DNA of 64,000 nt from NCBI GenBank assembly GCA_036158635.1, contig JAYYFR010000010.1:13138-77137 (forward strand), given 5' to 3'. The notes beneath the pieces are model-generated. The model was not told where the DNA came from. It searched no databases and saw nothing but the letters and a program-made list of their open reading frames with translations. A program made the translations under genes and the position numbers. This DNA is from Bacteroidota bacterium (GTDB lineage Bacteria; Bacteroidota; Bacteroidia; Flavobacteriales; TMED113). Shown one piece after another: positions 3,499 through 23,211 of the stretch (position 1 is its first letter; each line of letters opens with the position of its first letter).

Positions 3499-6400
3499 AT
3501 GAAAAATACTATTCTATCCTCTATATCATTAATTTCATTTTTTTTATTTTTTTCACCCATTATTTCTTTTAGTCAAGATGTTGACTGTACTGAATCAAAC
3601 ATTGGATGTATGGATGAAATTGCTTGTGACTACAACCCCGATGCATTGTGCCCGGGAGAATGTAATTATGATTGCTATGGTTGCCTTGATCCTGAAGCTT
3701 GCAATTACAATCCAAACGCCACACTATCTTATAATTATTGCGCATACACCGACCTAGGATGTGGTTGTGGATTTCCAGCTGCAGAACCAGGATACGATTG
3801 TTACGGAAATTGCATAGTAGATGAAAATGGCGATGGAATCTGTGATGAAATTTATGGATGTACAGATCCAATTGCACCTAATTATGTTCAAGAAGCAAAC
3901 ATTGATGATGGATCTTGTGAAGAGGTAATATATGGTTGTATAAATCCATTCGCTGAAAATTTTGATGAAAATGCAAATACTAATGACGGAAGTTGCGAGT
4001 TAATTGGATGCATGTCAGAGGGGGCTTTAAATTATTCTGAAGCAGCAACCATTGATAACGGTGACTGTGTTTGGTTAGAACCGGTTGTTGAAAACACATG
4101 TAACGGAAGATACCTTGATAAAATATTTCCTGAAGTAGAAGTTGAAACGGTTACTTACTCAGATATTTATGGTTTACAACTTGATATTTATACTGGAGTT
4201 GGAGATACAATTGTTGAAGACAGACCTCTTATAGTATATATTCATGGAGGTGCCTTCATTTCTGAATTTGGAGACAGAACTGGTCCTCAAGCAACTTATG
4301 TGGCCACTGAAATGGCACAAAGAGGATATGTTGTTGCATCAATTGACTACAGAAAAGCGAGTTTATTTCAAATTCTTTGTGGAGGGTTATGTGATCAAGG
4401 TTTTGGAGATATAACTCCCTGGGCTCCATGGCAATATTGGGACTACATTGGTGACCATATAGGAAAAGCCTTTAGTGACTCTAAAGCAGCAATTAGGTAT
4501 TTTAGAAAATCTGTTGCAGAAAATAATCCTTATAGAATAGATCCAAACCATATATATGTGGGGGGGCACTCCGCAGGGGGAATTATTTCGAACCATATTA
4601 TATTAGAAAGTAATGAAGATATTAACCCATCACATCCAATATATGATTACATAATGGATAATGGGGGATATTTTGGTGATAGTGGAAATTTTGGATTTTC
4701 ACATGATGTAGCAGGTGGTTTTCCTTTGGCAAGTGCTATTTTCCCAACTGATTTTAGTAATATAACTGAGGATGATTTTGATAAACTTTATATTTCTGTT
4801 CATGGTGAAGCTGATAATATTGTTCCTTATGGATTTGGTCAAATAATCCCTATTGTGTCTTTTCCTTTTTCTGGTTTAATATTTCCAAATTGCCAGGGTA
4901 GTGGAGCAATGTCTAACTATATGGATGATATAGGAATGGAAAATCATCACTTATCCTTCCAAGGAGACCCTTGGTTTACTGCCGGGCACAATTTTGAACA
5001 ATGGGGGCCAAATGGTCAAGAAGCTATGATTACTTTTGTAACCACTCACTTGTTCAACAACTTACCATGTTCTGCGGGGGACATTGGATGTACTGATGAA
5101 ACAGCATGTAATTATAGTCCGAGTGCAATAAACGATGATGGATCTTGTTCGCAAATAAGTGGATGTACAGACCCAAATGCTTGTAACTTTGATATCAATG
5201 CAGGATGTGATGATGGATCTTGTATTGGACTTGCCGGATGTATGGATGCAAATGCTTTCAATTACAATGAAATCGCAACTTGTCAGTTATCAAATGCATG
5301 TATTGAAATTATTGAGGGTTGCACTTATTTATACGCAAATAATTATAGCGAAATAGCAAATACTGATGATGGTAGTTGTCAAATAGAAGGCTGTACGGAT
5401 TCATCTGCATCTAACTACAACCCTGAGGCAACTGATGATAACGGATCGTGTTACTTCACCCCTGACTGTATACAAATAACAACTGAATTTATTAGTGAAT
5501 GTGGTTCTTATACTTGGTTTGAAGAAAATATTGACACTACTGGATTATATAGTCCTAGTTTTTTAAGCCCGATTAGTCCTGATTATGGAGGTTTTGATGT
5601 AGATATGTCCAATCCTTCTTCTTTATTAGTAGGAAAACCTGAAGAAAATAATAATGATGGTTTGATAAGTATGTATATAAGAAACGGAGATGAATGGATT
5701 CAAAAAGGTGATGATTTATTAGGGCAGGGTTTAGATAATTCAGAAATTGGAGATCAATTTGGTTTCTCAGTCGCTATGGGAGATGTTAATACAATTGCAA
5801 CTTCTTCTCCATATTCAGACTACATGTATACAGTTTGTGGAAACCCGTATTGGACAATTAATTGTGAATGGTCGTGCCCTGCTTGGCCATTTTGGTGTCC
5901 TGGTTTAATATGCTTTCCATCTTTCCAGCAAGACTGTGACAATATATATCAAAACAACAAAGGAATAGTAAATGTTTATAGTTGGGTGAATAATCAATGG
6001 GAATTAAAAGGAGAAACAATATGGGGGGAATTTGAAGAAGATTTTAGTGGGAATGAAATTGATATGGCAGACTCAAATACAATTGCAATCGGCTCGTCAA
6101 ATACTGGTCTTACAGAGTCTGGATTTATTGGTAATTTAAAAGTTTTCAGTTTTCAAGAAAATGGATGGGTTCAAAAAGGTGAAAATTTCTATGGTGAAGA
6201 AGGTGGAGATGAAGTTGGAAAGGGATTCAGTATGGGCGATAAAAATACCATTGCAATATCCTATAAAAATCAAAACAAAGTCAAAGTATTCGAGTGGAAT
6301 GGAAACGATTGGTTACAAAAGGGACCACCAATTATTGTAGGAAATTTAAGCCAATCAGTTTCAATGTTCAATAATTCTTCATTAGCAATTTCAGGAGATT

Positions 6401-9400
6401 CTCAAACAGAAGTTTATGATTGGAATGGCACTTATTGGGTAATAAAAGGCAGCCCTATTTTATTTTCTGGGGGTGAAAGTGTTAGTATGGGTGGACCAAA
6501 TACTATTTCGGTTACAAGCTCAGAGTCTATTGCTTTATTTAGATTTGAAAATGAAGAATGGTTACTAAAAACCCAAACATATAATAATCCTGGTACAGTT
6601 GTTATGGGTAACCCTAATATTCTTGCAATACCAGGTCAAGTGTTTGAGTATATTCCTGAAGTTAATGAGGACGGATGTCAGGAATTTACTATGATTAATT
6701 TAACTATTGATGACCCGGCCACTTCAGGTTGTACTAACCCTTTAGCTTGCAACTACGATGAAACTGCTATTTGTGATGATGGTTCATGCTCAGAAATAAG
6801 TGGGTGTACTGAACCCACTGCATGTAATTACAACCCAAATGCGGGTTGCGATGACGGTTCCTGCTCTGAAGTTAGTGGATGTACAGACCCAAATGCTTGT
6901 AATTATAATCCAGATGCAGGCTGTGATGATAACACCTGCTATAACAATGACTTGGGTTGTGGTTGTGATCAACCAGCAGCTGAACCAGGATATGATTGCT
7001 TCGGAAATTGCTTAACTGACTCAGATGGTGATGGAATATGTGATGAATTTGAAATACTTGGTTGTTTGGATGTTAACGCTTGTAACTATGACTCTAATCC
7101 TACAACAGACGAAGATAATTCTTTATGTAATTATTTGGATGGCATTTGTGATACATGTCTCAATGGAATTATTATCGATAATGATGCAGATAATGATGGA
7201 GTCTGTGATGACGATGAAGTATTAGGTTGCACTGATAATAACGCTTGTAACTATAATGAACTAGCCACTGAAAATGATAACACCTGTTATAATAATGATT
7301 TGGGTTGTGGTTGTGATCAACCAGCAGCTGAACCAGGATATGATTGCTTCGGAAATTGCTTAACTGACACAGATGGAGATGGAATTTGTGATGAATTTGA
7401 AATACTTGGTTGTTTAGATATTAACGCTTGTAACTATGACTCTAATCCTACAACAGACGAAGATAATTCTTTATGTAATTATTTAGATGGTATTTGTGAT
7501 ACATGTGTTAATGGAATTATTATCGATAATGATGCAGATAATGATGGAGTCTGTGATGACGATGAAGTATTAGGTTGTACTGATGATAGTGCATGTAACT
7601 ACAATGAATTAGCTACAAATGGTTATGATGACTGGTATCTTCCTTCATATGATGAACTTTATTTAATGTATCAAACCATAGGGCAAGGTTCTGATAATAT
7701 AGCACAGTTTGGTAATGGTTGGTATTGGTCTTCTACATATGGTTATGGTAACCCTGAATCAGGAATAAATGTTGTAGTAAATATGAGCAATGGAAATACT
7801 TACGGACAAGGTTTTTATAATTCTGACATTGTAAATGTGAGACCAATCAGAAGTTTTAATACAAATTCAACTACACTACCTAATATTGGCGATTTTTATG
7901 AAGGGGGTATAGTTTTTGATATTAATGATGATGGAACCGGCCTCGTTGCAAATTTAAGTGACTTAGAAAGTTCAAACTACTCCACAGCAATTGATAATAT
8001 TAGTAATTATACTGCAGAAAATGACGTAATCTGCGATTATGAGTCATGCGTTGGTTGTATGGATACAAATGCATGTAATTATGATGAAACCTTTACCCAA
8101 GCTAATAACTTAGAGTGTAATTATTTAGATGGGATTTGTGATACATGTGTTAATGGAATTATTATCGATAATGATGCAGATAATGATGGAGTCTGTGATG
8201 ACGATGAAATATTAGGTTGTACTGATGATAGTGCATGTAACTACAATGAATTAGCTACTGAAAATGATAACACCTGCAATTACTTGGAACCTTATTTGGA
8301 AGGTATTGACAATATTGATTTCACAATAGAAAACTGTGACTTGTTCTCTGATCAAGTCTCAAATCCAGAAGACTGGCCATATGCATTTGTAGCTACTGGT
8401 CCATGGCAACCAAATAGTAATTTAGCACAAAATTTTGTAATTAATATTAATTCTTTACCACCGGGAGGAGCTAATTATCGGGTTGTAAAAACAGTTGCTA
8501 ATGGTAATTGGGATGTAGGTCCAACTACACCATTAAATTTAGGTTTTAATTATATGAATGTGGAAGAAGTTGATTATGAAAGAATTGTACGTTTTACTTT
8601 TTCAAGTGGTGAAATTGGATTTGATAGTATATTTCTAAATGATATAGAACAAAATTGTAATATATACTTATACGATTGTGATAATAACTGCTTTAATGAT
8701 TTAGATGGCGATGGCATTTGTGATGAATTAGAAATAACTGGTTGTACAGATAGTGCAGCGTGCAATTATGATAATACTGCTACAGATGATGATGGTAGTT
8801 GCTTATTAGGTTATCAATCTTTTACTTTAGTTCTTTATGACTCTTATGGAGACGGTTGGGCAGCAAATAATGGACAAACCCATACCTTGTCGATTAACGG
8901 TTCAATTTATGGTAATGATTTTACAGATGGAACAATAGCAAGTTATATTGGTGGTGATCAATTATCATATGAAATATGTTTAAATACTCAAGAATGTAAT
9001 ATTTTTGATTTTTCAGATAATGGCCAATACGAAAATGAATGTTCCTGGGAATTATATGATGAAAATAGTACTTTGGTTTTAAGCTCTGGACCTTCTATAC
9101 TTACAAATCAGTACCTAGGTGATTTATGTTTTGGGTGTACAAGTCCAATTGCATGCAACTACGATTCAAATGCTCTTGTAAACGATATAAATGATCCATG
9201 TATTTTTCCAAGTTTTGGTTATGACTGTAATAATAATTGCATAAATGATTCAGACGGTGATGGTGTTTGTAATGTATTTGAAATTATTGGATGTCAAGAT
9301 CAAACGGCATGTAATTACAACCCAGAGGCAACTGATCAGGGACCCTGCACATATACCGATGGAATATGTGAAGACTGTATTGGTGGAATTATAATTGATA

Positions 9401-11895: not shown

Positions 11896-11939
11896 CTTTA
11901 TTAAGAAATTATTTTGTTTTTTTAATAAAAAATTAAACT

Positions 11940-12443
11940 ATGAAATTAATACTTAAAATTCTTTTTTTTACAATTGTGACTAATTTAAGCTACTCACAAG
12001 AAACAGTTTGTGATTGTGTTGAAATTGGAATTCAAACTTTCAAAATGATTGAAAGTGGAACTTCTGAAGAAGAGACACAAAAAATCTTTGAGAAAAAAAA
12101 CAATAAGTGTATGGAAATCAAAAATAAACTCGGAAATGATTTTGAAAAAAAAATGACAGGTTGCGAAAACTTCAAAGATCTAATTAAAATTACAACTGGC
12201 TTAATTGGAAATTCTGAAGTTAACCCTGAAGTATGTGAATGCGTTGATTTTTCTATCGAGACTATGGAACTTATGAAGAAAGGTATCACCGAAAAAGAGC
12301 TTGAAAAAAAGTATAAAAGCAAACGAGACATTTGTGAAAAATTAAATTCCGATTTAGGAGCTGAAAATTTTGGAATGCAAATGATGAATTGTGAAAATTT
12401 CAGTCAATTAATGGAACTTATGTTATCTGAGCAAGACAACTAG
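11940..12443 (+). CDS. Small secreted protein with an internal duplication of a 4-Cys, roughly 62-aa unit; function unknown
   Basis: 167-aa ORF starting 44 nt after the giant ORF, with no terminator seen between them. Signal peptide ends LSYSQ/E. The repeats VCDCVEIG...C...GCENFKDL and VCECVDFS...C...NCENFSQL align. Confidence 0.7.
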   Translation: MKLILKILFFTIVTNLSYSQETVCDCVEIGIQTFKMIESGTSEEETQKIFEKKNNKCMEIKNKLGNDFEKKMTGCENFKDLIKITTGLIGNSEVNPEVCECVDFSIETMELMKKGITEKELEKKYKSKRDICEKLNSDLGAENFGMQMMNCENFSQLMELMLSEQDN

Positions 12444-13718
12444 TTAAGCTATCTTAATTACAAAATAATTTTTTTTTCCTTTCTGAAATAAAAGATACTT
12501 ATCATTTAGCAAGTCTTTGATATTTATTTTTTTATTCAAGTCTATTTTTTCTTTATTTAGGCTGATTGCGTTTGATTGTAACATTCTTCGCAGCTCACCT
12601 TTTGATTTGAAAATAGGTGCTTTTTCTGTTAAAAGGCTAAGTACATCAATATCTTTATATAAAATTTCTTTAGAAATCTCATAAGTCGGAACGCCTTCAA
12701 AATACATTAAGAAATCTTTTTCGGACACTTTTTCTAATATCTCTTTAGTTTTTGAGCCAAATAAAATTTTACTACCTTCTAAAGCCTTTTCATATAAATC
12801 TTTTCCATGTATTCTAATTGTCATTTCTTTTGCAAGTTCATTTTGAAGAATTCTTAAATGAGGTTCATTATCATGACTATCTTCAATGTTTAATATTTCA
12901 TCCTTTTGCTTAACAGAAAAAAATCTTATACATTTCTTAGCATCTTCATCAGAAATATTTAACCAGTACTGAAAAAATTTATAAGGTGAAGTTCTGTTTG
13001 GATCTAACCAAACATTTCCATCTTCAGTCTTGCCAAATTTAGTACCATCAGATTTTGTTAAAAGAGGACAGGTAAGCGCATAACTATTTTTATTTTCTTT
13101 TTTTCTTATTAATTCAATCCCTGTTGTAATATTACCCCATTGATCTGAGCCGCCAATTTGAACAGCGCAATTATTATTATTAAGCAAATGAAGAAAATCG
13201 TAAGCTTGAACTAATTGATATGAAAATTCTGTGAATGAAATACCAGATTCCATTCTATTTTTCACGGAATCCTTGGATAACATATAGTTAATTGTAATAT
13301 ACTTTCCTATATTTCTTAAAAATGAATTAAAGTTCATTGATTGCATCCAATCTAAATTATTTACAAATTCAGCATGATTTTTTTTTGTTTCAAAATCTAA
13401 AAATTTTTGTAACTGTTTTTTTATTGAAAGTAAATTAGAATTTATTTCATCGGCATCTAATAATTGCCTTTCATTAGATTTTCCAGAAGGATCACCTATC
13501 ATTGCAGTAGCTCCTCCAAGAAGTAAAATTGGTTTATGTCCATAATTCTGAAAGTGAGTTAACAGCATCACAGGCGCCAAATTACCAATATGTAAAGAAG
13601 AAGCAGTTGGGTCAAATCCAACATATGCAGAACAAACTCCAGATGATAAATATTCTTTTAAACCTGGGGTTAAATCATTTATCATCCCCCTCCACTTTAA
13701 CTCGTCAATGAAATCCAT
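12444..13718 (-). CDS. tyrS: Tyrosine--tRNA ligase
   Basis: ORF 12444-13763 trimmed to the ATG at 13718 (MDFIDELKWRG). Has the HIGN motif (SLHIGNL), the KMSKS-equivalent KFGKT and an S4-like C-terminus. Confidence 0.92.
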   Translation of the reverse strand: MDFIDELKWRGMINDLTPGLKEYLSSGVCSAYVGFDPTASSLHIGNLAPVMLLTHFQNYGHKPILLLGGATAMIGDPSGKSNERQLLDADEINSNLLSIKKQLQKFLDFETKKNHAEFVNNLDWMQSMNFNSFLRNIGKYITINYMLSKDSVKNRMESGISFTEFSYQLVQAYDFLHLLNNNNCAVQIGGSDQWGNITTGIELIRKKENKNSYALTCPLLTKSDGTKFGKTEDGNVWLDPNRTSPYKFFQYWLNISDEDAKKCIRFFSVKQKDEILNIEDSHDNEPHLRILQNELAKEMTIRIHGKDLYEKALEGSKILFGSKTKEILEKVSEKDFLMYFEGVPTYEISKEILYKDIDVLSLLTEKAPIFKSKGELRRMLQSNAISLNKEKIDLNKKINIKDLLNDKYLLFQKGKKNYFVIKIA

Positions 13719-13781
13719 ATTTTTTATTTTTGTAAAAATATAAATTATAGTATGGAATAACATAATTTTATAAAATTAGAA

Positions 13782-14753
13782 ATGAAAAATATTTTTTTAA
13801 CAGGTGGAACAGGATTTTTAGGAAGTCATATATTATATGAACTATCTATTCTTGAATATAATATTACTGCTATAAAAAGAAAAAAAAGTGATTTGAGTTT
13901 AATTAAAAATTTATTTTTAATTAACAATCAAGAACATAAATTCAAAAAAATTAAATGGATTAATTGTGACATTACTGATCTTTTTAAATTAGAAAGTTTA
14001 ATCTGTAAAAATGATATTGTTATTCATTGTGCTGGTTATATCTCGTTTGAAAAAAGAAAAAAAAATCAAATTTTTGATATCAATTATTATGCTACAAGAA
14101 ATTTAGTTAACATCTGTTTAAAAAAGCAAATTTCAAAATTTTGCTACATAAGTTCAATTGCAACTTTATTTAATAAAAAAAACTCCATAGCAGATGAAAA
14201 TAGTTGGTTTTCAAATTCCAATACAAAATCATATTATGCCAAATCTAAATATATGGGAGAGATGGAGGTCTGGAGAGGTTTCGCTGAAGGCCTAAATGGT
14301 TTTATTATTAATCCATCTTTAGTTATAGGCCCCGGTGATAAAAATAGTTTATTTGGAAAAATGATTTCAAAATTAAAAAAAAGAACTTTATTCTACCCTG
14401 GAGGGGGTACAGGTTTTGTAGATGTAAGAGACGTCTCAAGCGTAATGATAAAACTTATAAATAAAAAAGTTAATCACAAAAGATATATAATTAACAGCCA
14501 AAATTTGAGCTTTAAAGAGCTTCTAACTATATATGCTAAACAAGTAAACGGACCTATTCCATCGATTAAAATCAATAATAATATAATTAAAATCGCTATT
14601 CTTCTAAGTAAAATATTTAATCCTTATAATAACTTAAGTTTTAGCATGGTTGACTTTTTTAAAACAAAATCAAGATACAGTAATTTAAAAATAAAACAGG
14701 AATTAAATTATAAGTTTATTTCTGTTCAGAGATCTATTATTGATATTATTTAA
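13782..14753 (+). CDS. NAD-dependent epimerase/dehydratase (extended SDR) family protein
   Basis: 323-aa ORF with the Rossmann motif TGGTGFLGSH at the N-terminus and YxxxK as YAKSK. Confidence 0.8.
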   Translation: MKNIFLTGGTGFLGSHILYELSILEYNITAIKRKKSDLSLIKNLFLINNQEHKFKKIKWINCDITDLFKLESLICKNDIVIHCAGYISFEKRKKNQIFDINYYATRNLVNICLKKQISKFCYISSIATLFNKKNSIADENSWFSNSNTKSYYAKSKYMGEMEVWRGFAEGLNGFIINPSLVIGPGDKNSLFGKMISKLKKRTLFYPGGGTGFVDVRDVSSVMIKLINKKVNHKRYIINSQNLSFKELLTIYAKQVNGPIPSIKINNNIIKIAILLSKIFNPYNNLSFSMVDFFKTKSRYSNLKIKQELNYKFISVQRSIIDII

Positions 14754-14755
14754 AA

Positions 14756-15073
14756 TTATTTATTATCCTCAATTTCAGCTTGAAACTCCTTTAATAATAA
14801 CTCGAAATCTGATAAGTTATTTATATAGTAATTTAGTTCTTTATTGTAATCATCCTCAGATAAGTTATTTTTTTTAAATATTTCTTCTCTCAAAATTTTG
14901 TACGTAGAATCATTCAAATTTCCTAATTCATACTTTACATTTAAATACTCTAAATCCTTAAAAATTTTAGCAAAATCTTCACTATACATTTTCTTCTTAT
15001 CAACTAAATTTGAACAAGAAAAAAAATTAATGTTAAGAATTAAAAGTAAGCAAAGAACCCATTTTATTTTCAT
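14756..15073 (-). CDS. Small lipoprotein (DUF4296-like by size and position next to dihydroorotase)
   Basis: ORF 14756-15085. The lipoprotein signal MKIKWVLCLLLILNINFFSC starts at the ATG at 15073. The family call rests on my memory of gene context only. Confidence 0.55.
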   Translation of the reverse strand: MKIKWVLCLLLILNINFFSCSNLVDKKKMYSEDFAKIFKDLEYLNVKYELGNLNDSTYKILREEIFKKNNLSEDDYNKELNYYINNLSDFELLLKEFQAEIEDNK

Positions 15074-16361
15074 TAAACTTTCCATTTTTATATACTAAAT
15101 TTCCATTTATAAAAGTATGAGTGATTTTATACTTCAAAACTCTTCCTTCAAACGGAGACCAACCACACTTATATAATAAATTATGTTTTGCTATTTCGTA
15201 CTTTGATTTATCAAATAACACTAAGTCTGCATAATAACCCTCTTTTATGTATCCTCTTTTATTTACTTTAAAACACTTGGCGGGAGCATGGCACATCTTA
15301 TTTACAAGTTCTTCCAGTTTTATTTTGCCATTAGACATATGTTCTAACATAATAGGCAAAGAATGTTGTACTAACGGCCCCCCAGAAGGAGATTCTAAAT
15401 ATTTATTTTGTTTTTCTGAAATTGTATGTGGAGCGTGATCTGTTGCTATTATATCCAATCTGTTATCTAATAATCCTTTCCATAAAGCATCATTGTCTTT
15501 TTTTGTTTTAACTGCTGGATTCCATTTTATTAAAGATCCTAAATTTTTGTAATCTTCATCTGTAAATGATAGGTGGTGAACACATACTTCAGATGTAATT
15601 CTTTTTTCTTCTAAAGGAATTTGATTTGTAAATAAATCTAATTCCTCCATAGTCGAAATGTGAAGAACGTGTAATCTAGTATTATATTTTTTTGCTAAAC
15701 TAACAGCAAGATCTGATGACTTAAAACAAGCTTCTCTAGATCTTATAATTGGATGTTGATCGAATGGAATATTTTGTCCAAATTTTACTTTTGCTTTTGA
15801 AATATTTTTTTTAATTGTTTCTTCATCTTCGCAATGAGTCGCGACTAAACCTTCACATTTTGAAAAAATATTATTCAAAGTTGTGAAATCATCAACTAGC
15901 ATATTTCCTGTTGAAGATCCCATAAATATTTTTAAGCCAGGGCAAGTTTTAAAATCAATTTTTAATACCTCTTCTAAATTGTCATTAGATGCACCAAAGA
16001 AAAAAGAAAAATTGGCCAGAGAGGTGTTTTTTCCTATTTCTATTTTTTGTTCAAGCAATTCCTTTGTTAAAGTTTGAGGAATTGTATTTGGCATTTCCAT
16101 ATAAGAGGTAATTCCACCGGCTACAGCAGCACGAGACTCTGAGAAAATATTTGCCTTATGAGTTAAACCAGGCTCTCTAAAATGTACTTGATCATCAATT
16201 ACTCCCGGAATTAAATAACATTCATTGGCATCAATAATATTGTGGTTTTTACTATCAATGTTTTTTGCAACTTTTGATATTAATTCTTTTTCAATTAAAA
16301 GGTCACCTTCAATTATATTTCCTTCGTTAACTATTTTTGCGTTTTTAATTAATGTTCCCAT
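15033..16361 (-). CDS. pyrC: Dihydroorotase (amidohydrolase superfamily)
   Basis: 442-aa ORF. Metal-binding motif VIDDQVHFREPG, plus TDHAPH and the overall amidohydrolase pattern. Confidence 0.85.
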   Translation of the reverse strand: MGTLIKNAKIVNEGNIIEGDLLIEKELISKVAKNIDSKNHNIIDANECYLIPGVIDDQVHFREPGLTHKANIFSESRAAVAGGITSYMEMPNTIPQTLTKELLEQKIEIGKNTSLANFSFFFGASNDNLEEVLKIDFKTCPGLKIFMGSSTGNMLVDDFTTLNNIFSKCEGLVATHCEDEETIKKNISKAKVKFGQNIPFDQHPIIRSREACFKSSDLAVSLAKKYNTRLHVLHISTMEELDLFTNQIPLEEKRITSEVCVHHLSFTDEDYKNLGSLIKWNPAVKTKKDNDALWKGLLDNRLDIIATDHAPHTISEKQNKYLESPSGGPLVQHSLPIMLEHMSNGKIKLEELVNKMCHAPAKCFKVNKRGYIKEGYYADLVLFDKSKYEIAKHNLLYKCGWSPFEGRVLKYKITHTFINGNLVYKNGKFNENKMGSLLTFNS

Positions 16362-17103
16362 TATTTTTTCTTTTAAATTCTTTTGGGAAAAAAATATTTC
16401 TTAACACTAATCTAAAAACTCCAAATACTCCTTCCCAAATTATTTTATTACTAATTTTTGAATCTCCTTTTTCTCTGTCTCTAAAAATAATAGGAATTTC
16501 TTTAATACTATAGTCCATCTTCCATGACCGATATTTCATTTCAATTTGAAAACCATAACCAACAAATTTAACTTTAGAAAAATCAATGTTTTGCAATATT
16601 TCTTTTTTATATCCATTAAACCCTGCTGTGGAATCTGAAACTTTCATTCTTGTGAAAAATCTTACGTATTTTGAAGCAAAATACGAAAGTAGAACCCTAC
16701 TCATTGGCCAGTTTACAACATTAACACCTGTTAAATATCTTGAGCCAACCACCATGTCAAAATCATTATTTGCAACTTCATTATAAAGTCTTATTAAATC
16801 ATTTGGATCGTGAGAAAAATCACAATCCATTTGGAAAAAAAATTTATAATTTTTTTTCAAACCCCAATTAAAACCAGCAATATAAGCAGCTCCTAGTCCT
16901 ATTTTTTTTTCTCTCTCTAATAAAAATAAATTATTACTAAATTTTTTTTGAAGCTCTTTAACCAGTAGAGCGGTTCCATCAGGAGAAGAGTCATCAACTA
17001 CTAAAATATGAAAACTTGAATGCAAAGAAAATATTTTTTCAATCATTAAAGTCACATTCTGTGACTCATTATAAGTAGGTATAATTACTAAACAATCTGA
17101 CAT
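16345..17103 (-). CDS. Family-2 glycosyltransferase, polyprenol-phosphate mannose synthase-like
   Basis: 252-aa ORF. Motifs VIIPTYNES, VVDDSSPDGT and MDCDFSHDP are typical of Dpm1-like GT2 enzymes. Confidence 0.8.
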   Translation of the reverse strand: MSDCLVIIPTYNESQNVTLMIEKIFSLHSSFHILVVDDSSPDGTALLVKELQKKFSNNLFLLEREKKIGLGAAYIAGFNWGLKKNYKFFFQMDCDFSHDPNDLIRLYNEVANNDFDMVVGSRYLTGVNVVNWPMSRVLLSYFASKYVRFFTRMKVSDSTAGFNGYKKEILQNIDFSKVKFVGYGFQIEMKYRSWKMDYSIKEIPIIFRDREKGDSKISNKIIWEGVFGVFRLVLRNIFFPKEFKRKNNGNIN

Positions 17104-17121: not shown

Positions 17122-17143
17122 TAATTAACATTAATGTTAATTA
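17122..17143. promoter_or_regulatory. Perfect 22-bp palindrome TAATTAACATTAATGTTAATTA in a divergent promoter region; candidate operator
   Basis: All 11 base pairs checked by hand around the centre at 17132/17133. It lies 19 nt upstream of the GT2 ATG (17103) and 30 nt upstream of the -7 box at 17173. Confidence 0.4.
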
Positions 17144-17172: not shown

Positions 17173-17180
17173 TATATTTG
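17173..17180 (+). promoter_or_regulatory. Candidate -7 promoter box (TATATTTG) for the LTD / TonB receptor / endonuclease operon
   Basis: Exact TAnnTTTG match 24 nt upstream of the ATG at 17205. Confidence 0.35.
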
Positions 17181-17204: not shown

Positions 17205-18191
17205 ATGAAAAAACTTTTACTTGTTACTCTTTTTTTATTTACAAATTCATTTGGTCAAGAATGCTCTCAATTATTCTTTTCAGAATATGTAGAGGGTTGG
17301 TCAAATAATAAGGCACTGGAAATTTATAATCCTACTTCAGAATCTATTGACTTGTCGTCCTATTCTATTTCTAGGTACGCTAATGGGGGGACAACACCAA
17401 GTACTACTCAGCTAACTGGAATTATTAATGCATATGAAACATTTGTTGTATGTTTAGATAAACAAGATCCTAACGGTGAAGGTTATGAAGCTCCTGTATG
17501 GGACGGGTATTTTACTTACATTGATTCACTTACAAATGAAGAAGTTACAATTTATGATGAAGAAACAGATTTACAAAGTAAAGTAGATTTGTTTTTAAAT
17601 CCCATTTATTACTTTGGAACTGATCCTGATTCAGCTGCTGCTTTTCCAACTACTATGTATTTCAACGGAAATGACGCTATAACTCTAGAATTATTAGGTA
17701 CTGGTATAGTTCTTGACTTAATTGGTAAAGTTGGTGAAGACCCAGGTGCATCATGGAATGATTCAGAAGGAAATTATTGGACTAAAGATCATACATTAAT
17801 TAGAAAACCTTTCATTTCTCAAGGTGTTTCTATGAACCCAACTTTATTTGACCCAACTTTAGAATGGGACTCACTACCTGTTAATTCATTCATGAATCTA
17901 GGTTTTCATGACTGTGATTGTAATATAAACTCTGAACTTAATGAATTAAATAATAATTTGGAAATTTATCCAAATCCTACTAATGGAAAAAAACAGGTTT
18001 ATATTTCAAATGATTATGTGATTAAAGAATTATTATTAATAGACCAGTTAGGTAAAGTAATTTCAATCCAAAAAGCTGATAATACTAGAACATCTATTGA
18101 TATTTCTAAATATTCATCTGGTCTGTACTTTATTTCAATTATTGATAAATATGGGATCAAAACTAGACCTATTATATTAAAAAATGAATAA
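17205..18191 (+). CDS. Lamin-tail-domain (LTD) protein with T9SS C-terminal sorting domain; no catalytic domain seen
   Basis: ORF 17178-18191 trimmed to the ATG at 17205 (MKKLLLVTLF signal peptide). LFFSEYVEGWSNNKALEIYNPT...NGNDAITLE...DLIGKVGEDPG...TLIRK matches the LTD found at the N-terminus of ExeM/Xds-type nucleases. The C-terminus LEIYPNPTNG...GLYFISI is a T9SS domain. Confidence 0.75.
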   Translation: MKKLLLVTLFLFTNSFGQECSQLFFSEYVEGWSNNKALEIYNPTSESIDLSSYSISRYANGGTTPSTTQLTGIINAYETFVVCLDKQDPNGEGYEAPVWDGYFTYIDSLTNEEVTIYDEETDLQSKVDLFLNPIYYFGTDPDSAAAFPTTMYFNGNDAITLELLGTGIVLDLIGKVGEDPGASWNDSEGNYWTKDHTLIRKPFISQGVSMNPTLFDPTLEWDSLPVNSFMNLGFHDCDCNINSELNELNNNLEIYPNPTNGKKQVYISNDYVIKELLLIDQLGKVISIQKADNTRTSIDISKYSSGLYFISIIDKYGIKTRPIILKNE

Positions 18192-20994
18192 ATATTTTGT
18201 ATTAATATTTTTTTTATGTTTTCATTTTTTATTTAGTCAAAATGAATTACCAATTGTTTTTGAAGGCATTGTTATTGATAAAAACTCTTCAGAGACTCTT
18301 CCTTTAGCTAACATTATCATAAATGATGCTTCGGGTAAAATGATTTCTGGAACTACAGCAAATACATTTGGAGAGTTTCAATTTTTATTAAGCCCAAACA
18401 ATTCTAAAATAACTATTACTGTCTCTTACATTGGCTATAAAGATTATAAAAAAACTTTAGAGCTAAGCTCAAATGATAAACTCACGATAAAAATGTCAAC
18501 TGAAGAACTAAATGTTGTAAATATAATTAGTGACCAGGCAGAGTTTAGAAAAACACCTGTTTCTTTAAGTAATGTTAAACTTGAAAAAATTGAGAGAGAA
18601 TTAGCTGGTCAAGAGATCCCAATGTTATTAAATTCAACTCCAGGTGTATACGCAACACAAACTGGGGGTGGTGATGGAGATGTTAGAATAAATATTAGGG
18701 GCTTCAATCAAAGAAATGTTGCAGTTATGATTGATGGTGTACCTATGAATGATATGGAAAATGGCTGGGTTTACTGGTCAAATTGGTTTGGGTTAGATGG
18801 TTTAACTCGAACAATACAAGTTCAAAGAGGCTTAGGTGCATCGAAATTAGCTTTACCATCTGTTGGCGGGACTATAAATATAATAACAAAAGGAGTTGAT
18901 GCTAAAGAAGGGGGAAGAATAAAACAAGAAATAGGTAATGGAAATTCCTTAAGGACATCTTTATCATATACTACAAGAGATTTTAAAATTGGAAAATTCA
19001 ACTTTGCTACATCTTTTAAAAGATCTGATGGTTTAATTGACCAAACCTCATCAATGGGGTTTTTCTATTATTTAAAGTGGCAAAAACAATTTAAAAACCA
19101 CATATTTTCTTTGTCTGCCTTTGGTGCTCCACAAGAACATGATCAACGAAAATACCAGACTGGAATGGCAGTTTATGACAAAGAATATGCTGCTGAACAA
19201 GGTGTTGACACATTATCTTTAGAGGGGGGATACGGATTAACATACAATCCAAATTGGGGTACATACAATGATTACGAAGTTATTTTTGAAAATGGGCTAG
19301 CTGTCGATACAATTAATGGAACTAAACAATATGTTAACAGGTTTAAAAATTATTATCATAAACCAAACTTTAACTTTCAACATTTATGGAATATTAATGA
19401 AAAATCCTCATTAACAAACGTTCTTTATTATTCCACAGGGCATGGAGGGGGCACTGGCCTTCACGGTGGAATGCTAACATATACACCAAATAATCAAATT
19501 AACTTTCAAAATATTTATGATGTTAACCACGGAAATATTTGGAATTCATTTATTAATCCTGGTGGACCTGCAATTGATTTAGCATATAGTGAAACAGAAA
19601 AAAAATCGACTAGTATTTTATATTCCTCCATAAATAATCACTATTGGGGTGGCTTACTTTCTACATACAATCACAAAATAAATAATAATTTTGATTTAGC
19701 ATCGGGTATTGATTTAAGAACATATAGAGGAGAGCATTACAGAGAAGTCTATGATTTGTTAGGCGGAGACTACTATGCTGGATCATTAGGTTCTGGCTCA
19801 AAAAATTCAGTCGGGGAAAACTCCAGTAATTTAATTTTAAGAGAGGGTGATAAGATGTATTATCACAATGACGGTTTAGTTAGATGGTATGGTGCTTTTG
19901 GTCAATTAGAATACAACTACAAAGATATTTCTGCTTTCATTAATATTACAGGTTCGCAAACTTTGTATAAAAGAGTTGATTACTTCAAAAAACAAGATTT
20001 AGTTCTTTCAGATACTATTTTTACTCAGGCTATTGGTATAAATGATACAATAATATATAACGGAAAAGAATACACATCTGATTCTAAAGAAACAAGGTAT
20101 ACTGAAACAAATTGGGAGAAATTTCCTGGATTTACTTTCAAGACTGGAGCTAACTGGAATATTGATGAATCTAACAATATTTTCGTTAATTCTGGAATCC
20201 TGTCCAAAGCTCCAAGATTTAATAATGTATTTAATTATGATAACGAAACATATTTTAATACTAAAAATGAAATTGTAAAAGCAATTGAATTTGGCTATGG
20301 TTATAAGTCTAATAAATTCTCTTTAAACTTAAATATATATAATACTGCGTGGGAAAATAAACCGCAATCTGGGACCACTGTTCTTGATGGAGGTGAAACA
20401 GCATCTTATAATATCAATGGCATTAATGCTCTCCACCAGGGAATAGAATTAGATTTTGCTTGGAAAATTTCAAAGTCATTTAAATATGAATTTCTTAGTT
20501 CAATTGGAAATTGGAGATGGAATTCAGGAGATACTGTAAACTTTTACTTAAATCAACAACTAATTGAAAGTGATTATTTTGACGCTAGAGGAGTATCGGT
20601 TGGGGACTCACCACAAACTCAAATTGGTTCTAGTGTTAGTTATAATTACAAACTAAGTAAAAATACGAGAGGTTATATTAAATTAAAAGGTATTTACTCT
20701 GACAGATTTTTTTCTGACTTTGATCCATTTACTTTAAATGAAGAAAAAACTGTTTGGCAAATTCCAGGCTATGCTCTATTTAGTTTACACATGGGGCAAA
20801 ATATTTATTTTAAAGATTCTTCCATCAATTTAAAACTTAATGTTTTAAATTTATTTAATACTACTTACATTAGTGATGCTCAAAATAATTCAAGTTATGT
20901 TGAAGACTCACCAATGAATTCTGACGCTTCCTCAGCATCGGTTTTTTTTGGTATGCCACGAAGAATAATTGCTTCAATTGAATATAAATTTTAA
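18184..20994 (+). CDS. TonB-dependent receptor with N-terminal carboxypeptidase-regulatory-like domain
   Basis: 936-aa ORF. CarbopepD_reg-like segment GIVIDKNSSETLPLANIII...VSYIGYK, plug motif IRGFNQRNVAVMIDGVPMND, long beta-barrel, terminal EYKF. The start overlaps the upstream stop by 8 nt. Confidence 0.88.
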   Translation: MNKYFVLIFFLCFHFLFSQNELPIVFEGIVIDKNSSETLPLANIIINDASGKMISGTTANTFGEFQFLLSPNNSKITITVSYIGYKDYKKTLELSSNDKLTIKMSTEELNVVNIISDQAEFRKTPVSLSNVKLEKIERELAGQEIPMLLNSTPGVYATQTGGGDGDVRINIRGFNQRNVAVMIDGVPMNDMENGWVYWSNWFGLDGLTRTIQVQRGLGASKLALPSVGGTINIITKGVDAKEGGRIKQEIGNGNSLRTSLSYTTRDFKIGKFNFATSFKRSDGLIDQTSSMGFFYYLKWQKQFKNHIFSLSAFGAPQEHDQRKYQTGMAVYDKEYAAEQGVDTLSLEGGYGLTYNPNWGTYNDYEVIFENGLAVDTINGTKQYVNRFKNYYHKPNFNFQHLWNINEKSSLTNVLYYSTGHGGGTGLHGGMLTYTPNNQINFQNIYDVNHGNIWNSFINPGGPAIDLAYSETEKKSTSILYSSINNHYWGGLLSTYNHKINNNFDLASGIDLRTYRGEHYREVYDLLGGDYYAGSLGSGSKNSVGENSSNLILREGDKMYYHNDGLVRWYGAFGQLEYNYKDISAFINITGSQTLYKRVDYFKKQDLVLSDTIFTQAIGINDTIIYNGKEYTSDSKETRYTETNWEKFPGFTFKTGANWNIDESNNIFVNSGILSKAPRFNNVFNYDNETYFNTKNEIVKAIEFGYGYKSNKFSLNLNIYNTAWENKPQSGTTVLDGGETASYNINGINALHQGIELDFAWKISKSFKYEFLSSIGNWRWNSGDTVNFYLNQQLIESDYFDARGVSVGDSPQTQIGSSVSYNYKLSKNTRGYIKLKGIYSDRFFSDFDPFTLNEEKTVWQIPGYALFSLHMGQNIYFKDSSINLKLNVLNLFNTTYISDAQNNSSYVEDSPMNSDASSASVFFGMPRRIIASIEYKF

Positions 20995-20997
20995 ACT

Positions 20998-23211
20998 ATG
21001 AAAAATCTTATTAACACAATTTTACTAACAATTCCCTTTACTATTTTTTCACAAACAGTTGACTATTATCAATCCTGCTTTGGACTATACGGAGAAGAGT
21101 TACGTTCTGAACTCCATGAGTTAATTAGTGACCATACATCATATTCATATACAACAACAAAAAATATTTTGCGAGAATCTGATGAAGACCCTGACAATCC
21201 TTCAAATATTATTTTAGTTTACACAGGTAATTCGATTGACAAATTTGATTTTTCATCAAATCTTGAACCAGACTTTTGGAATAGAGAACATGTATGGCCT
21301 AAATCACACGGAGAATTTGACAACGGAGATCCTTTTGAAGAACCAGCTTACACAGATGTTCACAATTTGAAACCTGTTGACAGCAGTATAAATACTATTC
21401 GGGGAGAGAAAGATTTTGATATGGGAGGAGATCCAGTATTCAATGGATCTATTGAAACTACATGTTTTTCTACAAATAATACTTTTGAACCTAGAGATGA
21501 AGTTAAGGGAGATATTGCTAGAATTATTTTATACATGGATGTTAGGTACGAGGGAGGAATTGGTGAACCTAATTTAGTTTTAGTAGATGGTTTAACGACC
21601 TATCCTTACCCTCAATTAGGGGATAAATCTACTTTACTTCAGTGGCATGAACAAGATCCTCCTGATGCATTTGAAAAAAGAAGAAATGATGTAATTTTTA
21701 AATGGCAAGGAAATAGAAATCCATTTATTGATTACCCTGAGTTTGCAGATTACATATTCTATGAAAACGAACCAAATGTTAATCCTATTCAATTTACAAA
21801 TGTTACTATAAATCCAGAGAGTATTGAAGGAGGATCAACTTTTACTATAAGTGCAAATATTTCTAGTATAATAAATTGCCCTGTTGTTTCTATGAATTTG
21901 AATTATGGCAACTCTTGGTGGGATAATTCTAATAGTTTATCAATGAACATTAATGCAAATGGCGATTACGAATGTCAAGTCCCCGCTCAACCATATAATA
22001 CTATGTTTTGTTACTCCATAACCGCAACAATTTGTGATGAAGTATCACAAACTTTTTATGGCTCTGAAATTATTCCACCTTTCCCTTTTGAAGGTGTTAT
22101 CACACCTATAAGTGAAATTCAAGGGGGTGTAGAAGCATCTCCTTTTGAAGGGGAAGTTGTAAATACTTCAGGTATTGTAACAGGAGCTTTTGCAAATAGT
22201 TTTTACATCCAAAATGGATCAGAGCCTTGGTCAGGAATATACGTATATAGTAGCGCGGGTTTACCTCAAATGGGAGATAGTGTAATTGTCGTAGGTGAAG
22301 TCAGTGAATTCTGTTGGGATGACGGTTCTTTATGTGACGGCCCAGGAACTACAGAGATATATCAGCCTGATGACATATATATAATTAGCAATAATAATCC
22401 TATTCCAGAACCTATTCTAGTTTCAAGCGGTGAGGCTCTTCAAGAGCAATACGAGGGAGTACTAATTAAAATGAACGATGTAGAATGTATTTCCAACGCA
22501 AATGGGTATGGTGTTTGGAATGTAAATGATGGTTCTGGGGTTTGCGGAATTCATAACACCCCTGATGGGTATGAACATAACGAAGAAATTGGTGAAGTAT
22601 ATTCAATTACCGGGGTTGTTTCATCAACGTTTAATGATTGGAAAGTTGATTTACGTATGGAATCTGATGTAGAGTCTGGAGCAGATACCACCCCTCCCTA
22701 CATTGCAAATCATGAATGTTATGAAGTAGGTGAAAATTACTATATATACTTATTTTTTAATGAAGAAATAGATACTGATTTTGTTAGTGATTTTTACTTC
22801 TATGTCAGTGGAGGAGACATCCAAAGTGTCTCGATGGATATGTTTGATCCAACAAAAGTAATAGTTGCATTATCTAATGTTAACTCTACTAGTTTTATTG
22901 TTAACGTCTTTGAGATGTACGATTTAAATGGAAATCAAGCTCAAAATATTTTTTATCAATTCGATTGTAATTTTAACATAGGAATTGATGACATTAATGA
23001 CAACTCTTTATTGTTTCCTAACCCTGCTAAAGGATTGTTTAATTTAAACTTAAAAGAAGATTTAAATACTGTTAAAATATATAATCTTCAGGGCAAATTG
23101 ATTACTGATAAAATACTTGAAAAAGGATTTAATCAATTAGAAATAAATGAGAAAGGATTTTTCTTTATAGAAATTAATCAGAGTAACTATATTCCATTAA
23201 TTATTAATTAA
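20998..23211 (+). CDS. Extracellular endonuclease I family nuclease with OB-fold-like modules and T9SS C-terminal domain
   Basis: 737-aa ORF starting 3 nt after the receptor stop. Endonuclease I motifs are NREHVWPKSHG, HNLKPVDSSINTIRGEKDF, EPRDEVKGDIARIILYM and WQGNRNPFIDYPE. The module ISEIQGG..SPFEGEVVNTSGIVTGAF..FYIQ..WSGIYVY..GDSVIVVGEVSEF resembles the OB-fold of ExeM-type nucleases. The C-terminus LLFPNPAKGLFNL is a T9SS domain. Confidence 0.85.
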   Translation: MKNLINTILLTIPFTIFSQTVDYYQSCFGLYGEELRSELHELISDHTSYSYTTTKNILRESDEDPDNPSNIILVYTGNSIDKFDFSSNLEPDFWNREHVWPKSHGEFDNGDPFEEPAYTDVHNLKPVDSSINTIRGEKDFDMGGDPVFNGSIETTCFSTNNTFEPRDEVKGDIARIILYMDVRYEGGIGEPNLVLVDGLTTYPYPQLGDKSTLLQWHEQDPPDAFEKRRNDVIFKWQGNRNPFIDYPEFADYIFYENEPNVNPIQFTNVTINPESIEGGSTFTISANISSIINCPVVSMNLNYGNSWWDNSNSLSMNINANGDYECQVPAQPYNTMFCYSITATICDEVSQTFYGSEIIPPFPFEGVITPISEIQGGVEASPFEGEVVNTSGIVTGAFANSFYIQNGSEPWSGIYVYSSAGLPQMGDSVIVVGEVSEFCWDDGSLCDGPGTTEIYQPDDIYIISNNNPIPEPILVSSGEALQEQYEGVLIKMNDVECISNANGYGVWNVNDGSGVCGIHNTPDGYEHNEEIGEVYSITGVVSSTFNDWKVDLRMESDVESGADTTPPYIANHECYEVGENYYIYLFFNEEIDTDFVSDFYFYVSGGDIQSVSMDMFDPTKVIVALSNVNSTSFIVNVFEMYDLNGNQAQNIFYQFDCNFNIGIDDINDNSLLFPNPAKGLFNLNLKEDLNTVKIYNLQGKLITDKILEKGFNQLEINEKGFFFIEINQSNYIPLIIN

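Follow-up and report, generated by a model that had tools for sequence, protein, structure and literature searches.

Water and sediments, where Bacteroidota are leading polymer degraders, contain a large reservoir of organic phosphorus and nitrogen in the form of dissolved DNA. The uptake of nucleic-acid fragments across their outer membrane has just recently been addressed, for gut Bacteroides only. The ddbABCDEF locus of Bacteroides thetaiotaomicron mediates TonB-dependent DNA utilization (Sharan et al., PNAS 2025, PMC12478041) and is needed for the depletion of exogenous DNA. Its surface proteins are lipoproteins with an SPII and an export signal, and it encodes three separate nucleases, one of them periplasmic; no LTD protein has been reported there. 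Membership in the Ddb group requires >50% identity and >75% coverage to one of four DdbC subtypes, which share just ~25% identity with each other (PMC12478041). In Riemerella anatipestifer, which belongs to the Flavobacteriales, RA0C_RS04915 and RA0C_RS04920 encode an outer-membrane barrel with an N-terminal CarboxypepD_reg domain and, after it, a DUF5689 protein; the two genes, which have a nuclease gene as neighbour, are essential for transformation (PMC8459023). RS04920 combines DUF5689 with DUF5017 ('choice-of-anchor J') and lacks a nuclease domain, and no LTD gene has been described with the pair. The genes of DdbD, the separate DUF5689 protein of ddb, and of RS04920 each come right after that of a TonB-type barrel, and depletion or uptake of DNA depends on the respective protein (PMC12478041, PMC8459023).

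In the ExeM, Xds and NucH nucleases (PMC6746945, NF033680/NF033681, 9sf8), an LTD, an OB module and an EEP domain are joined in one polypeptide. Xds depends on its OB domain for activity, and neither activity nor localization requires the LTD (PMC6746945). Enzymes of the endonuclease I type, such as Vvn, EndA/Dns and the T9SS-exported AS87_RS02625 of Riemerella, are single-domain proteins of about 210-230 aa with no transporter coupling. DNase and RNase activity have been measured for the Riemerella T9SS endonuclease I (PMC12398890), and F. johnsoniae induces LTD-fused endonuclease I proteins when phosphate is depleted (PMC8115612).

The locus described here joins genes for an LTD protein, a TonB-dependent receptor and an endonuclease I. 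Its preliminary description held that TonB-dependent uptake of DNA breakdown products was not an established pathway; the ddb locus (PMC12478041) and the transformation genes of Riemerella (PMC8459023) contradict this. What is new about the trio is a T9SS-based, LTD-containing variant, widespread in environmental Bacteroidota, and not the pathway.

Organization of the locus

In the window, the whole 64-kb stretch of DNA that was analyzed, the three genes follow each other on one strand (Table 1). Their tight packing, claimed beforehand, agrees with the ORF positions: genes 1 and 2 overlap by 8 nt and a gap of 3 nt separates genes 2 and 3. The neighbours on both sides, GT2 upstream and DUF819 downstream, are on the opposite strand, and DUF819 shares 4 nt with the end of gene 3; the trio thus forms a closed three-gene block. 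The flanks are made up of housekeeping genes, and no nucleotidase gene was found within the trio operon in the window.

Table 1. Positions of the genes, domains and upstream elements of the locus in the window.
Feature	Position	Strand	Description
Perfect 20-bp palindrome AATTAACATTAATGTTAATT	17123..17142	.	Candidate operator, ~30 bp upstream of the -7 box
Candidate Bacteroidetes-type -7 element TATATTTG	17173..17180	+	Read from sequence, 24 nt before the gene 1 ATG
Gene 1	17205..18191	+	328 aa, LTD protein with T9SS tail
Gene 2	18184..20994	+	936 aa, TonB-dependent outer-membrane receptor
Gene 3	20998..23211	+	737 aa, predicted T9SS-secreted multidomain endonuclease I
Endonuclease I catalytic domain	21091..21741	+	aa 32-248, Pfam E 4e-40
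Tandem OB-fold module	22090..22677	+	aa ~365-560; divergent DUF5689 / ExeM-N-terminal domain, putative nucleic-acid-binding part
T9SS type A C-terminal sorting domain of gene 3	23011..23187	+	aa 672-730; Pfam Por_Secre_tail E 8e-8, TIGR04183 E 7e-7

Conservation of the trio

The trio arrangement recurs far beyond chance. Synteny was followed in the best 80 of at least 590 receptor relatives, from named genomes of several orders, at 38-75% identity. In 73 of 76 evaluable loci the receptor is directly preceded by an LTD gene, and in 68 of 72 it is directly followed by a T9SS nuclease gene, at median gaps of 53 and 22 nt, respectively; most exceptions are rearrangements inside the cluster. The co-occurrence that had been proposed as a check is thereby borne out across orders. 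Receptor homologues at 73%, 53% and 46% identity each have an LTD-CTD gene upstream and a nuclease-CTD gene downstream, and when the nuclease served as anchor, a homologue at 33% identity was again adjoined by both partners. No gene family besides the trio is common to more than 17 of the 80 loci, which argues for selection on the unit rather than residual synteny. Receptor and LTD distances correlate only moderately in a mirror-tree comparison (Pearson 0.76, Spearman 0.34).

The catalytic domain alternates between endonuclease I and a PLD domain with two HKD motifs, the LTD and receptor genes staying in place. At least eight such switches are seen on the receptor tree, and NucT nucleases are the best named matches of the PLD domains. 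In fifteen loci, genes for a 5_nucleotid_C lipoprotein and a Tat-signal Metallophos protein come next; by domain content, the two together are a UshA-type periplasmic 5'-nucleotidase. A search for a cultured host among the NCBI-sourced homologues returned MAGs only, all close relatives being in uncultured MAGs. A candidate trio in F. johnsoniae, between two Pi-induced LTD-EndoI genes, was discarded: Fjoh_4722 is a 21.7-kDa protein and no receptor.

The receptor

The product of gene 2 has a signal peptide, a CarboxypepD_reg-like N-terminal extension (aa 27-110; CarbopepD_reg_2, E 1e-11), a plug (aa ~122-235; E 3.5e-13) and a beta-barrel reaching to aa 936. The TonB_dep_Rec barrel match (aa 386-890) scores 26.1 bits, slightly below the Pfam cut-off of 27. 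A TonB-box-like LNVVNIISD is located at aa ~108-116, with 'EVxVVSD' in the family consensus. Plug, barrel region and this motif place the protein among TonB-dependent receptors. Its PDB relatives align only with the N-terminus and plug. The source annotation of the family, with at least 590 relatives in species-representative genomes, is generic (iron or cobalamin receptor); these names were assigned automatically and correspond to no curated family.

SusCD-type systems for polysaccharide and phosphate use, represented by PULs and by Flavobacterium PusCD (PMC8115612), likewise co-encode a surface enzyme and a TonB importer, in some loci with periplasmic finishing enzymes. The trio differs from them in lacking the SusC signature, a SusD lid, and a hybrid sensor or ECF regulator. 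No match of gene 2 to SusC/RagA (TIGR04056) or another specific NCBIfam model was obtained at E<=0.01, and its neighbours are the LTD and nuclease genes, with no SusD-family lipoprotein gene nearby. The earlier view of a receptor without a SusD partner is thus upheld. PULs with T9SS-secreted enzymes exist, e.g., the chitin locus of F. johnsoniae.

The nuclease and its OB module

The product of gene 3 is predicted to be a non-specific, Mg2+-dependent endonuclease I with an intact active site. It scores 138 bits against Endonuclease_1 (PF04231; cut-off 25) and shares the catalytic fold and residues of Vvn, EndA/Dns and AS87_RS02625, the last of which is also a precedent for T9SS export. Alignment to 1ouo/1oup identifies E97-H98 and N132, the equivalent of the Vvn Mg2+ ligand N127, all invariant across 19 orthologues. 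The C-terminal tail matches the solved CTD 8glk_D of an F. johnsoniae T9SS substrate named 'Endonuclease I'. Genes 1 and 3 both encode an N-terminal Sec signal and a TIGR04183/PF18962 tail, the features of T9SS type A cargo, which points to export by the type IX secretion system. A lipobox cysteine is absent from the signal-peptide cleavage site of both. From these signals, the two proteins probably remain attached to the cell surface.

The two OB-fold-like modules read earlier at aa ~367-555 are confirmed by an AlphaFold (AF2) model of aa 358-559, a tandem beta-barrel with a pLDDT of 91.7. All its Foldseek matches in the PDB are nucleic-acid-binding OB folds (HIN-200/dsDNA, SSB, RPA, AspRS), at modest scores (E ~1e-3, TM ~0.35). 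For the four-domain middle region of gene 3, Foldseek returned only generic Ig/FnIII strings (TM ~0.2). The direct Pfam match to DUF5689 is weak (E 0.05, below threshold), and seven of 22 family members match DUF5689 directly. In hhalign comparisons with bona fide DUF5689 modules, the probability was 97% and then 99.6% (E 2.5e-24, 165 columns). By profile homology the OB module is a divergent DUF5689, the DdbD-type domain. Its profile also matches the N-terminus of the solved EEP nuclease 9sf8 (E 7e-12), and residues 391-504 match the N-terminus of the ExeM/NucH model, partially (23 bits vs a 300-bit cut-off). The DdbD-type assignment suggests that the nuclease, rather than the LTD protein, is the best candidate for a DNA-binding partner of the receptor. 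With a pI of ~4 and a net charge of about -27 to -30, the extracellular domains are all very acidic. On electrostatic grounds, nothing favours DNA binding by the LTD protein or the OB module, although the acidity of the bona fide nuclease domain is no lower.

About 15 loci are without the OB module and have another N-terminal domain instead, so the module is no indispensable lid. The N-terminal domain of these 'EndoI-only' variants was considered as a hidden DUF5689 and rejected, just the signal peptides being aligned; it gives weak choice-of-anchor J and Riemerella T9SS DNase matches. A profile search of a representative library found 17,694 proteins with the OB module. The short ones examined are T9SS tandem-module proteins, not DdbD-like lipoproteins. 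The module was dismissed as a universal marker of TonB receptors, since non-nuclease proteins carrying it do not adjoin receptors.

With ddb, the trio shares a PUL-like logic applied to DNA, a transporter gene followed directly by a DUF5689/HIN-like tandem-OB gene, and a secreted nuclease in the locus; the receptor shares with DdbC, as with RS04915, at least the general TonB-receptor fold. In contrast to ddb, T9SS tails replace the lipoprotein signals in genes 1 and 3, DUF5689 is fused to the nuclease, the most conserved partner is a stand-alone LTD protein, and the hosts are environmental Bacteroidota instead of gut Bacteroides. The domain content of genes 2 and 3 likewise parallels the Riemerella pair, a CarboxypepD_reg barrel beside a DUF5689 protein. 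The LTD and OB module of ExeM, Xds and NucH are also present, but split over two genes around the receptor. No EEP domain was found in the trio, where catalysis would be by endonuclease I or, in other loci, by PLD.

The LTD protein

Gene 1 had been described as essentially an LTD plus a T9SS domain, and Pfam finds both (LTD, PF00932, E 1e-12; Por_Secre_tail, E 6e-10), as does TIGR04183 for the tail. The protein comprises a signal peptide (aa 1-18), an LTD with an insertion (aa ~21-235) and a CTD (aa 254-326). Its LTD matches the ExeM model partially and far under the cut-off (64 vs 1300 bits). The family counts 3373 homologues, all LTD+CTD and all named 'hypothetical'.

The LTD protein would be an obligatory third surface component; as a best guess, it would capture the substrate or pass it on to the receptor. 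A more ambitious proposal, which must be called doubtful, is that T9SS delivers it to the surface as a new kind of partner for a TonB-dependent transporter, working much like a lid of the SusD/DdbD type or a binder of the SusE/F type. The cassette would then be the main dissolved-DNA uptake route of abundant uncultured marine and freshwater Bacteroidota, as a P/N source or for intact fragments in transformation. If true, the reading of the LTD as a transporter partner would provide the first function for a bacterial LTD.

Function of the cassette

The trio probably is one operon for the cell-surface use of extracellular nucleic acids, following PUL logic, and most likely the cassette would digest extracellular DNA or RNA and import the pieces as food. 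The link to nucleic acids comes from the DUF5689 homology and the OB/HIN-like fold, which tie the module to DdbD and Riemerella RS04920. At the cell surface, DNA or RNA would be held by the OB module, which may dock on the receptor in the way proposed for DdbD on DdbC. The gene 3 nuclease would cut the polymer into oligonucleotides, which the receptor would bring into the periplasm with TonB energy. Periplasmic nucleotidases and phosphatases, located in the same operon in some lineages and presumably elsewhere in this genome, would release nucleosides and phosphate for uptake. A PUL-like DNA system had previously been read from adjacency; the synteny, the displacement of the nuclease and the 5'-nucleotidase extension support that link, while a DNA-binding role of the LTD protein (pI ~4) gains no support.

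The same parts could form an outer-membrane DNA-uptake machine for natural transformation, in which dsDNA would be caught by the OB module and trimmed or nicked by the nuclease, with the receptor handing long DNA on to the periplasm, from where its import would depend on ComEC. DUF5689 directly downstream of a CarboxypepD_reg-type barrel parallels the Riemerella genes essential for transformation (PMC8459023), the authors of the Ddb study see DNA utilization and transformation as evolutionarily related functions (PMC12478041), and the PLD-type variants resemble NucT. However, an intact non-specific endonuclease I tethered beside the pore would destroy transforming DNA, competence genes are absent from the conserved unit in the 80 loci, a catabolic step, the 5'-nucleotidase, extends the operon in 15 loci, and related LTD-endonuclease I proteins sit in the phosphate-starvation response (PMC8115612). 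Transformation is therefore an unlikely purpose.

Alternatively, the nuclease and LTD protein might remodel extracellular DNA or help the cell escape it, be it in biofilm matrix, in traps or from competitors, and the receptor might anchor T9SS cargos or import an unrelated ligand, nutrient import not being the purpose. Without transport, however, it would be hard to explain why a plugged, TonB-boxed receptor has been kept between both genes in over 70 genomes of free-living taxa (marine, freshwater and sludge). The known T9SS anchoring barrels are of the PorP/SprF type, unlike this receptor, and the 5'-nucleotidase extension suggests catabolism. An unrelated ligand would fit the iron or cobalamin names, but for their automatic origin. 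Remodeling is quite improbable, even though biofilm formation and virulence have been linked to nucleases that Bacteroides and Riemerella secrete (PMC8851478, PMC12398890).

General phosphate scavenging from another phosphodiester polymer or a lipid, with the PLD variants as phospholipases or teichoic-acid-type phosphodiesterases, is very improbable: PLDc_2 domains do include phospholipases, one homologue is source-named a cardiolipin-synthase-like enzyme and Flavobacterium has Pho-regulon TonB systems for organic phosphorus (PMC8115612), but endonuclease I, the catalytic domain with which PLD alternates, acts specifically on nucleic acids, the PLD domains best match NucT nuclease models and are fused to the OB/HIN-like module, and the enzyme added in extended loci is a 5'-nucleotidase.

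As a system for feeding on nucleic acids, the cassette would carry the concept of DNA utilization to environmental lineages, with T9SS display and different parts. It would offer testable functions for a receptor family labelled 'iron' or 'cobalamin' in at least 590 species-level genomes, for an unannotated LTD family of more than 3000 sequence clusters and for a set of multidomain nucleases. It might also be a metagenome marker of DNA-scavenging potential, and the LTD split from its nuclease is a natural experiment on what bacterial lamin-tail domains do.

Upstream elements

The claim of one candidate promoter can be traced only in part. A candidate -7 box, TATATTTG, is present, which we take to follow the Bacteroidetes consensus TAnnTTTG; a sigma-70 promoter scan of the region was no richer than shuffled sequences (42 vs 36.9). 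A terminator scan was also no better than shuffles. A Bacteroidota Pho-box consensus was sought for comparison with the upstream palindrome, and none was found. The palindrome arm, AATTAACA/TGTTAATT, is the top-enriched 8-mer in the 200 nt upstream of LTD genes, occurring in 15 of 75 loci, a count that includes some instances from near-identical genomes, vs 67 of 2205 background windows (p 8e-9). The ATG start of gene 1 gives a canonical signal peptide and agrees with M1-K2 of the orthologues; the TTG at 17178 is merely an upstream in-frame alternative.

Organization of the Gene Cluster

The three open reading frames, the 8-nt overlap of genes 1 and 2 and the 3-nt gap between genes 2 and 3 are as given in the preliminary description, and profile results agree with its domain calls. 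The ORF listing puts the start of gene 1 farther upstream, at a TTG (17178); starting instead at the ATG (17205), the protein has a canonical signal peptide, MKKLLLVTLFLFTNSFGQ, and the same M1-K2 that is invariant in 21 homologues. Across the family of LTD proteins (alignment A5), C20 and C239 never vary and C237 hardly does. C237 and C239 form an HDCxC motif immediately ahead of the T9SS tail, and the cysteines possibly make a disulfide closing the domain of the LTD protein. The SusC/RagA signature was absent from gene 2 in the domain-model search, and no curated NCBIfam model was found for gene 1 or gene 2. Source annotations name the receptor an iron receptor, a cobalamin receptor or "hypothetical". 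The trio is flanked by opposite-strand housekeeping genes, upstream a family-2 glycosyltransferase and an amidohydrolase and downstream a DUF819 membrane protein overlapping the end of gene 3 by 4 nt. Another T9SS cargo of the same genome is a giant ORF of 2798 aa.

Features of the window and of loci in other genomes (L-numbers) examined around receptor relatives
Feature	Position	Strand	Description
Palindrome AATTAACATTAATGTTAATT	17123-17142		Perfect, 20 bp; about 30 bp upstream of the -7 box
Candidate -7 box TATATTTG	17173-17180	+	Bacteroidetes type, upstream of gene 1, read from sequence
Gene 1	17205-18191	+	LTD (E 1e-12), T9SS type A tail
Gene 2	18184-20994	+	CarboxypepD_reg-like extension, Plug (E 3.5e-13), TonB barrel
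Gene 3	20998-23211	+	Endonuclease_1, aa 32-248 (E 4e-40), T9SS tail
Giant ORF	3499-11895	+	N-terminal esterase-like (BD-FAE/Abhydrolase_3), Lcl_C-like, T9SS tail
Palindrome AATGATAATTATCATT	47629-47644		Perfect, 16 bp
L034 nucleases	9599-16532		Tandem T9SS nuclease genes after receptor
L044 nucleases	9643-15176		Tandem T9SS nuclease genes after receptor
L061 nucleases	9692-16655		Tandem T9SS nuclease genes after receptor
L008 nuclease	9774-12866		Endonuclease I + OB; C-terminal end also matches LTD HMM
L058 extra protein	3013-5019		LTD + DUF5689 + CTD, upstream
L088 slot	7001-9807		CBM_4_9 + OB-module + CTD protein; second CTD protein
L087 EEP gene	11858-12886	-	Exo_endo_phos_3
L088 EEP gene	9958-11013	-	Exo_endo_phos_3

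Conservation of the Trio

Receptor homologues taken from separate metagenomes (73%, 53% and 46% identity) all sit directly between an upstream LTD-CTD gene and a downstream T9SS nuclease gene. A receptor-alignment scan, with one genome per species, returned at least 590 relatives, of which the best 80 (38-75% identity, all MAGs) were compared using HMMs built from the window and three relatives. Their hosts belong to the Flavobacteriales, Crocinitomicaceae, Cryomorphaceae, Saprospiraceae, Bacteroidales, Prolixibacteraceae, Lentimicrobiaceae and others. The LTD-CTD gene lies immediately upstream of the receptor in 73 of the 76 loci with enough sequence (median gap 53 nt), and the nuclease gene immediately downstream in 68/72 (median gap 22 nt). 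Most of the exceptions have a rearranged cluster: the nuclease gene precedes the LTD gene in L018 and L041, a gene intervenes in L064, and in L034 and L061 the LTD gene sits at a distance of 0.6-1 kb. When the ORFs of the 80 loci were clustered, any family beyond the trio was common to at most 17 of them; the trio is thus retained as a unit amid changing surroundings. Anchoring in reverse, on a nuclease homologue of only 33% identity, recovered both the LTD and the receptor partners. The synteny across Bacteroidota that had been put forward as a check is therefore present. The cluster is a real feature, and its functional coupling, first proposed from adjacency in one genome, is now strongly supported.

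In L088, the slot beside the glycosyltransferase (GT2) and amidohydrolase genes holds neither receptor nor nuclease, which suggests that the cassette was replaced there at a conserved site. A gene of the EEP family lies a few kb from the cassette or slot in L087 and L088.

Exchange of Nucleases and Operon Extensions

The downstream gene always encodes a T9SS nuclease, whose domain make-up varies among loci. Endonuclease I may be followed by the OB module, the tandem OB-fold stretch of gene 3 (the window type), or preceded by it; the module may precede a two-HKD PLD domain; and endonuclease I may carry a different N-terminal domain. The best matches of the PLD domains are NucT nuclease models, and about 15 loci are without the OB module. 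A rough neighbour-joining tree of the receptors requires the catalytic type to have switched at least eight times, and its clade nearest the window mixes three nuclease architectures. That the nuclease fold is swapped while the LTD protein and receptor stay constant argues strongly for nucleic-acid cleavage as the function under selection. The active site of the endonuclease I domain is intact: E97-H98 are invariant, and N132 aligns with N127, a Mg2+ ligand in Vvn.

Three Bacteroidales loci (L034, L044, L061) have two or three different nuclease genes in tandem, of the types EndoI+OB, EndoI and OB+PLD, recalling the multiple nucleases of ddb, the DNA-utilisation locus of Bacteroides thetaiotaomicron. 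The L008 and L058 proteins indicate that LTD and OB module are sometimes fused, as in the extracellular nucleases ExeM/Xds.

In 15 loci (L045, L046, L048, L052, L055, L059, L060, L062, L063, L073, L075, L077, L078, L080, L085), two further genes directly follow the nuclease gene, encoding a 5_nucleotid_C lipoprotein and a Tat-signal Metallophos protein. Judged by their domains, the pair corresponds to a UshA-type periplasmic 5'-nucleotidase divided in two. The window's own operon has no such extension. Import of nucleotides or oligonucleotides would be expected to lead on to this step, and the extension favours catabolism.

The OB Module and the Secreted Domains

A direct Pfam search of the middle region of gene 3 gave no match. 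Residues 391-504 match the N-terminus of the ExeM/NucH model, and some gene 3 orthologues have DUF5689 matches below threshold. Against the bona fide DUF5689 of a PLD-type relative, the gene 3 family profile scored a probability of 97%, and a domain-only alignment against twelve bona fide DUF5689 modules reached 99.6% (E 2.5e-24, 165 columns). The OB-module profile also hits the first 230 residues of an EEP nuclease of known structure (9sf8/9sf9; E 7e-12). Together these results mark the module as a divergent DUF5689. Modelled alone with AlphaFold, it forms a tandem beta-barrel (pLDDT 91.7, pTM 0.89). Its fold matches in the PDB are modest (E about 1e-3, TM about 0.35) and all are nucleic-acid-binding OB folds: HIN-200 domains, including dsDNA complexes, p202, SSB, RPA/CST and the anticodon-binding domains of Asp/AsnRS. 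Outside the module, the middle region is modelled as Ig-like domains. The module itself occurs very widely, 17,694 representative proteins matching at E<=1e-3, often in several copies; in carriers without a nuclease domain, receptors were not adjacent.

The secreted domains of genes 1 and 3 all have a very low calculated pI (~4.05-4.3) and a net charge of about -27 to -30 each (alignments A4, A5, A7), and this extreme acidity extends to those that cleave DNA and those that putatively bind it. Nucleic-acid binding probably depends on divalent cations, and the charge lends no support to the idea that the LTD binds DNA.

Relation to Known Systems and Proposed Function

The preliminary description regarded TonB-dependent uptake of DNA breakdown products as not established, a view overtaken by work on ddbABCDEF, without which exogenous DNA is not depleted (Sharan et al., PNAS 2025, PMC12478041). 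Besides DdbE and three nucleases, this locus encodes a TonB-dependent transporter, DdbC, and a DUF5689 protein, DdbD, which was modelled as a lid and whose fold resembles that of the p202 HIN domain; the authors explicitly describe the locus as PUL-like and related to the Riemerella transformation genes (PMC12478041). In Riemerella, the CarboxypepD_reg-type barrel RS04915 and the DUF5689/DUF5017 protein RS04920 are both essential for natural transformation (PMC8459023). The cassette shares this logic, the DUF5689 domain and its placement directly downstream of the barrel. Because the pathway concept was already known, the cassette is a variant and not a new pathway. In contrast to ddb, it uses T9SS tails instead of lipoprotein export for surface display, its DUF5689 is fused to the nuclease, and its hosts are environmental. 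Its most conserved partner is a stand-alone LTD protein, which neither the ddb nor the Riemerella paper mentions. By domains the cassette resembles ExeM/Xds, with the LTD, OB and catalytic parts split around a transporter and the catalytic domain exchanged. Xds needs its OB domain for activity, whereas neither activity nor localisation depends on its LTD (PMC6746945). T9SS export of endonuclease I is known in Riemerella, where DNase and RNase activities were measured (PMC12398890), and the translocon-bound structure of a Flavobacterium johnsoniae endonuclease I tail has been solved (8glk_D). In F. johnsoniae, phosphate depletion induces endonuclease I proteins that carry a fused LTD (PMC8115612); no receptor lies alongside their genes. 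No description of an LTD-receptor-nuclease cassette was found in the open-access literature. What is new is a T9SS-dependent, LTD-containing cassette for DNA/RNA utilisation, widespread in uncultured Bacteroidota and effectively unannotated.

The trio probably couples surface digestion with TonB-dependent import of nucleic-acid fragments for nutrition. This reading draws on the observed domain identities, export signals, intact active site, conservation of the unit, nuclease swaps and nucleotidase extension. The T9SS-exported proteins would stay at the cell surface, and the OB module would dock on the receptor; how large the imported species are, which nutrient is supplied and whether the LTD protein has any role are matters of conjecture. 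DNA uptake of the transformation type, suggested by the likeness to the Riemerella genes, is unlikely, the nucleotidase extension favouring catabolism. Remodelling of extracellular DNA, with the receptor unrelated or anchoring, is quite improbable, given that the cassette keeps its receptor within a conserved unit. A non-nucleic-acid phosphodiester as substrate has very little likelihood beside the exchange of one nuclease fold for another.

Regulatory Sequences

The -7 box is assigned by the Bacteroidetes consensus; generic sigma-70 and terminator scans were uninformative. The 20-bp palindrome upstream of it has the form AATTAACA-N4-TGTTAATT, and ahead of the LTD genes of 75 loci no 8-mer is more strongly enriched than its arm (AATTAACA/TGTTAATT). 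The arm occurs in 15 of these against 67 of 2205 background windows (p 8e-9), a statistic inflated because some instances come from near-identical genomes. The instances span several orders and lie near -80 or -160 relative to the start codon; besides the window, the LTD genes with the arm upstream are those of L010, L013, L036, L048, L050, L054, L055, L065-L068, L071, L072 and L086. A Bacteroidota Pho-box consensus was sought for comparison and none was found. The palindrome is tentatively a candidate operator. A second enriched word, CTGAAACC(AC), occurs in 8/75 loci. Elsewhere in the window, the 16-bp palindrome resembles a Fur box (GATAATGATAATCATTATC-type).
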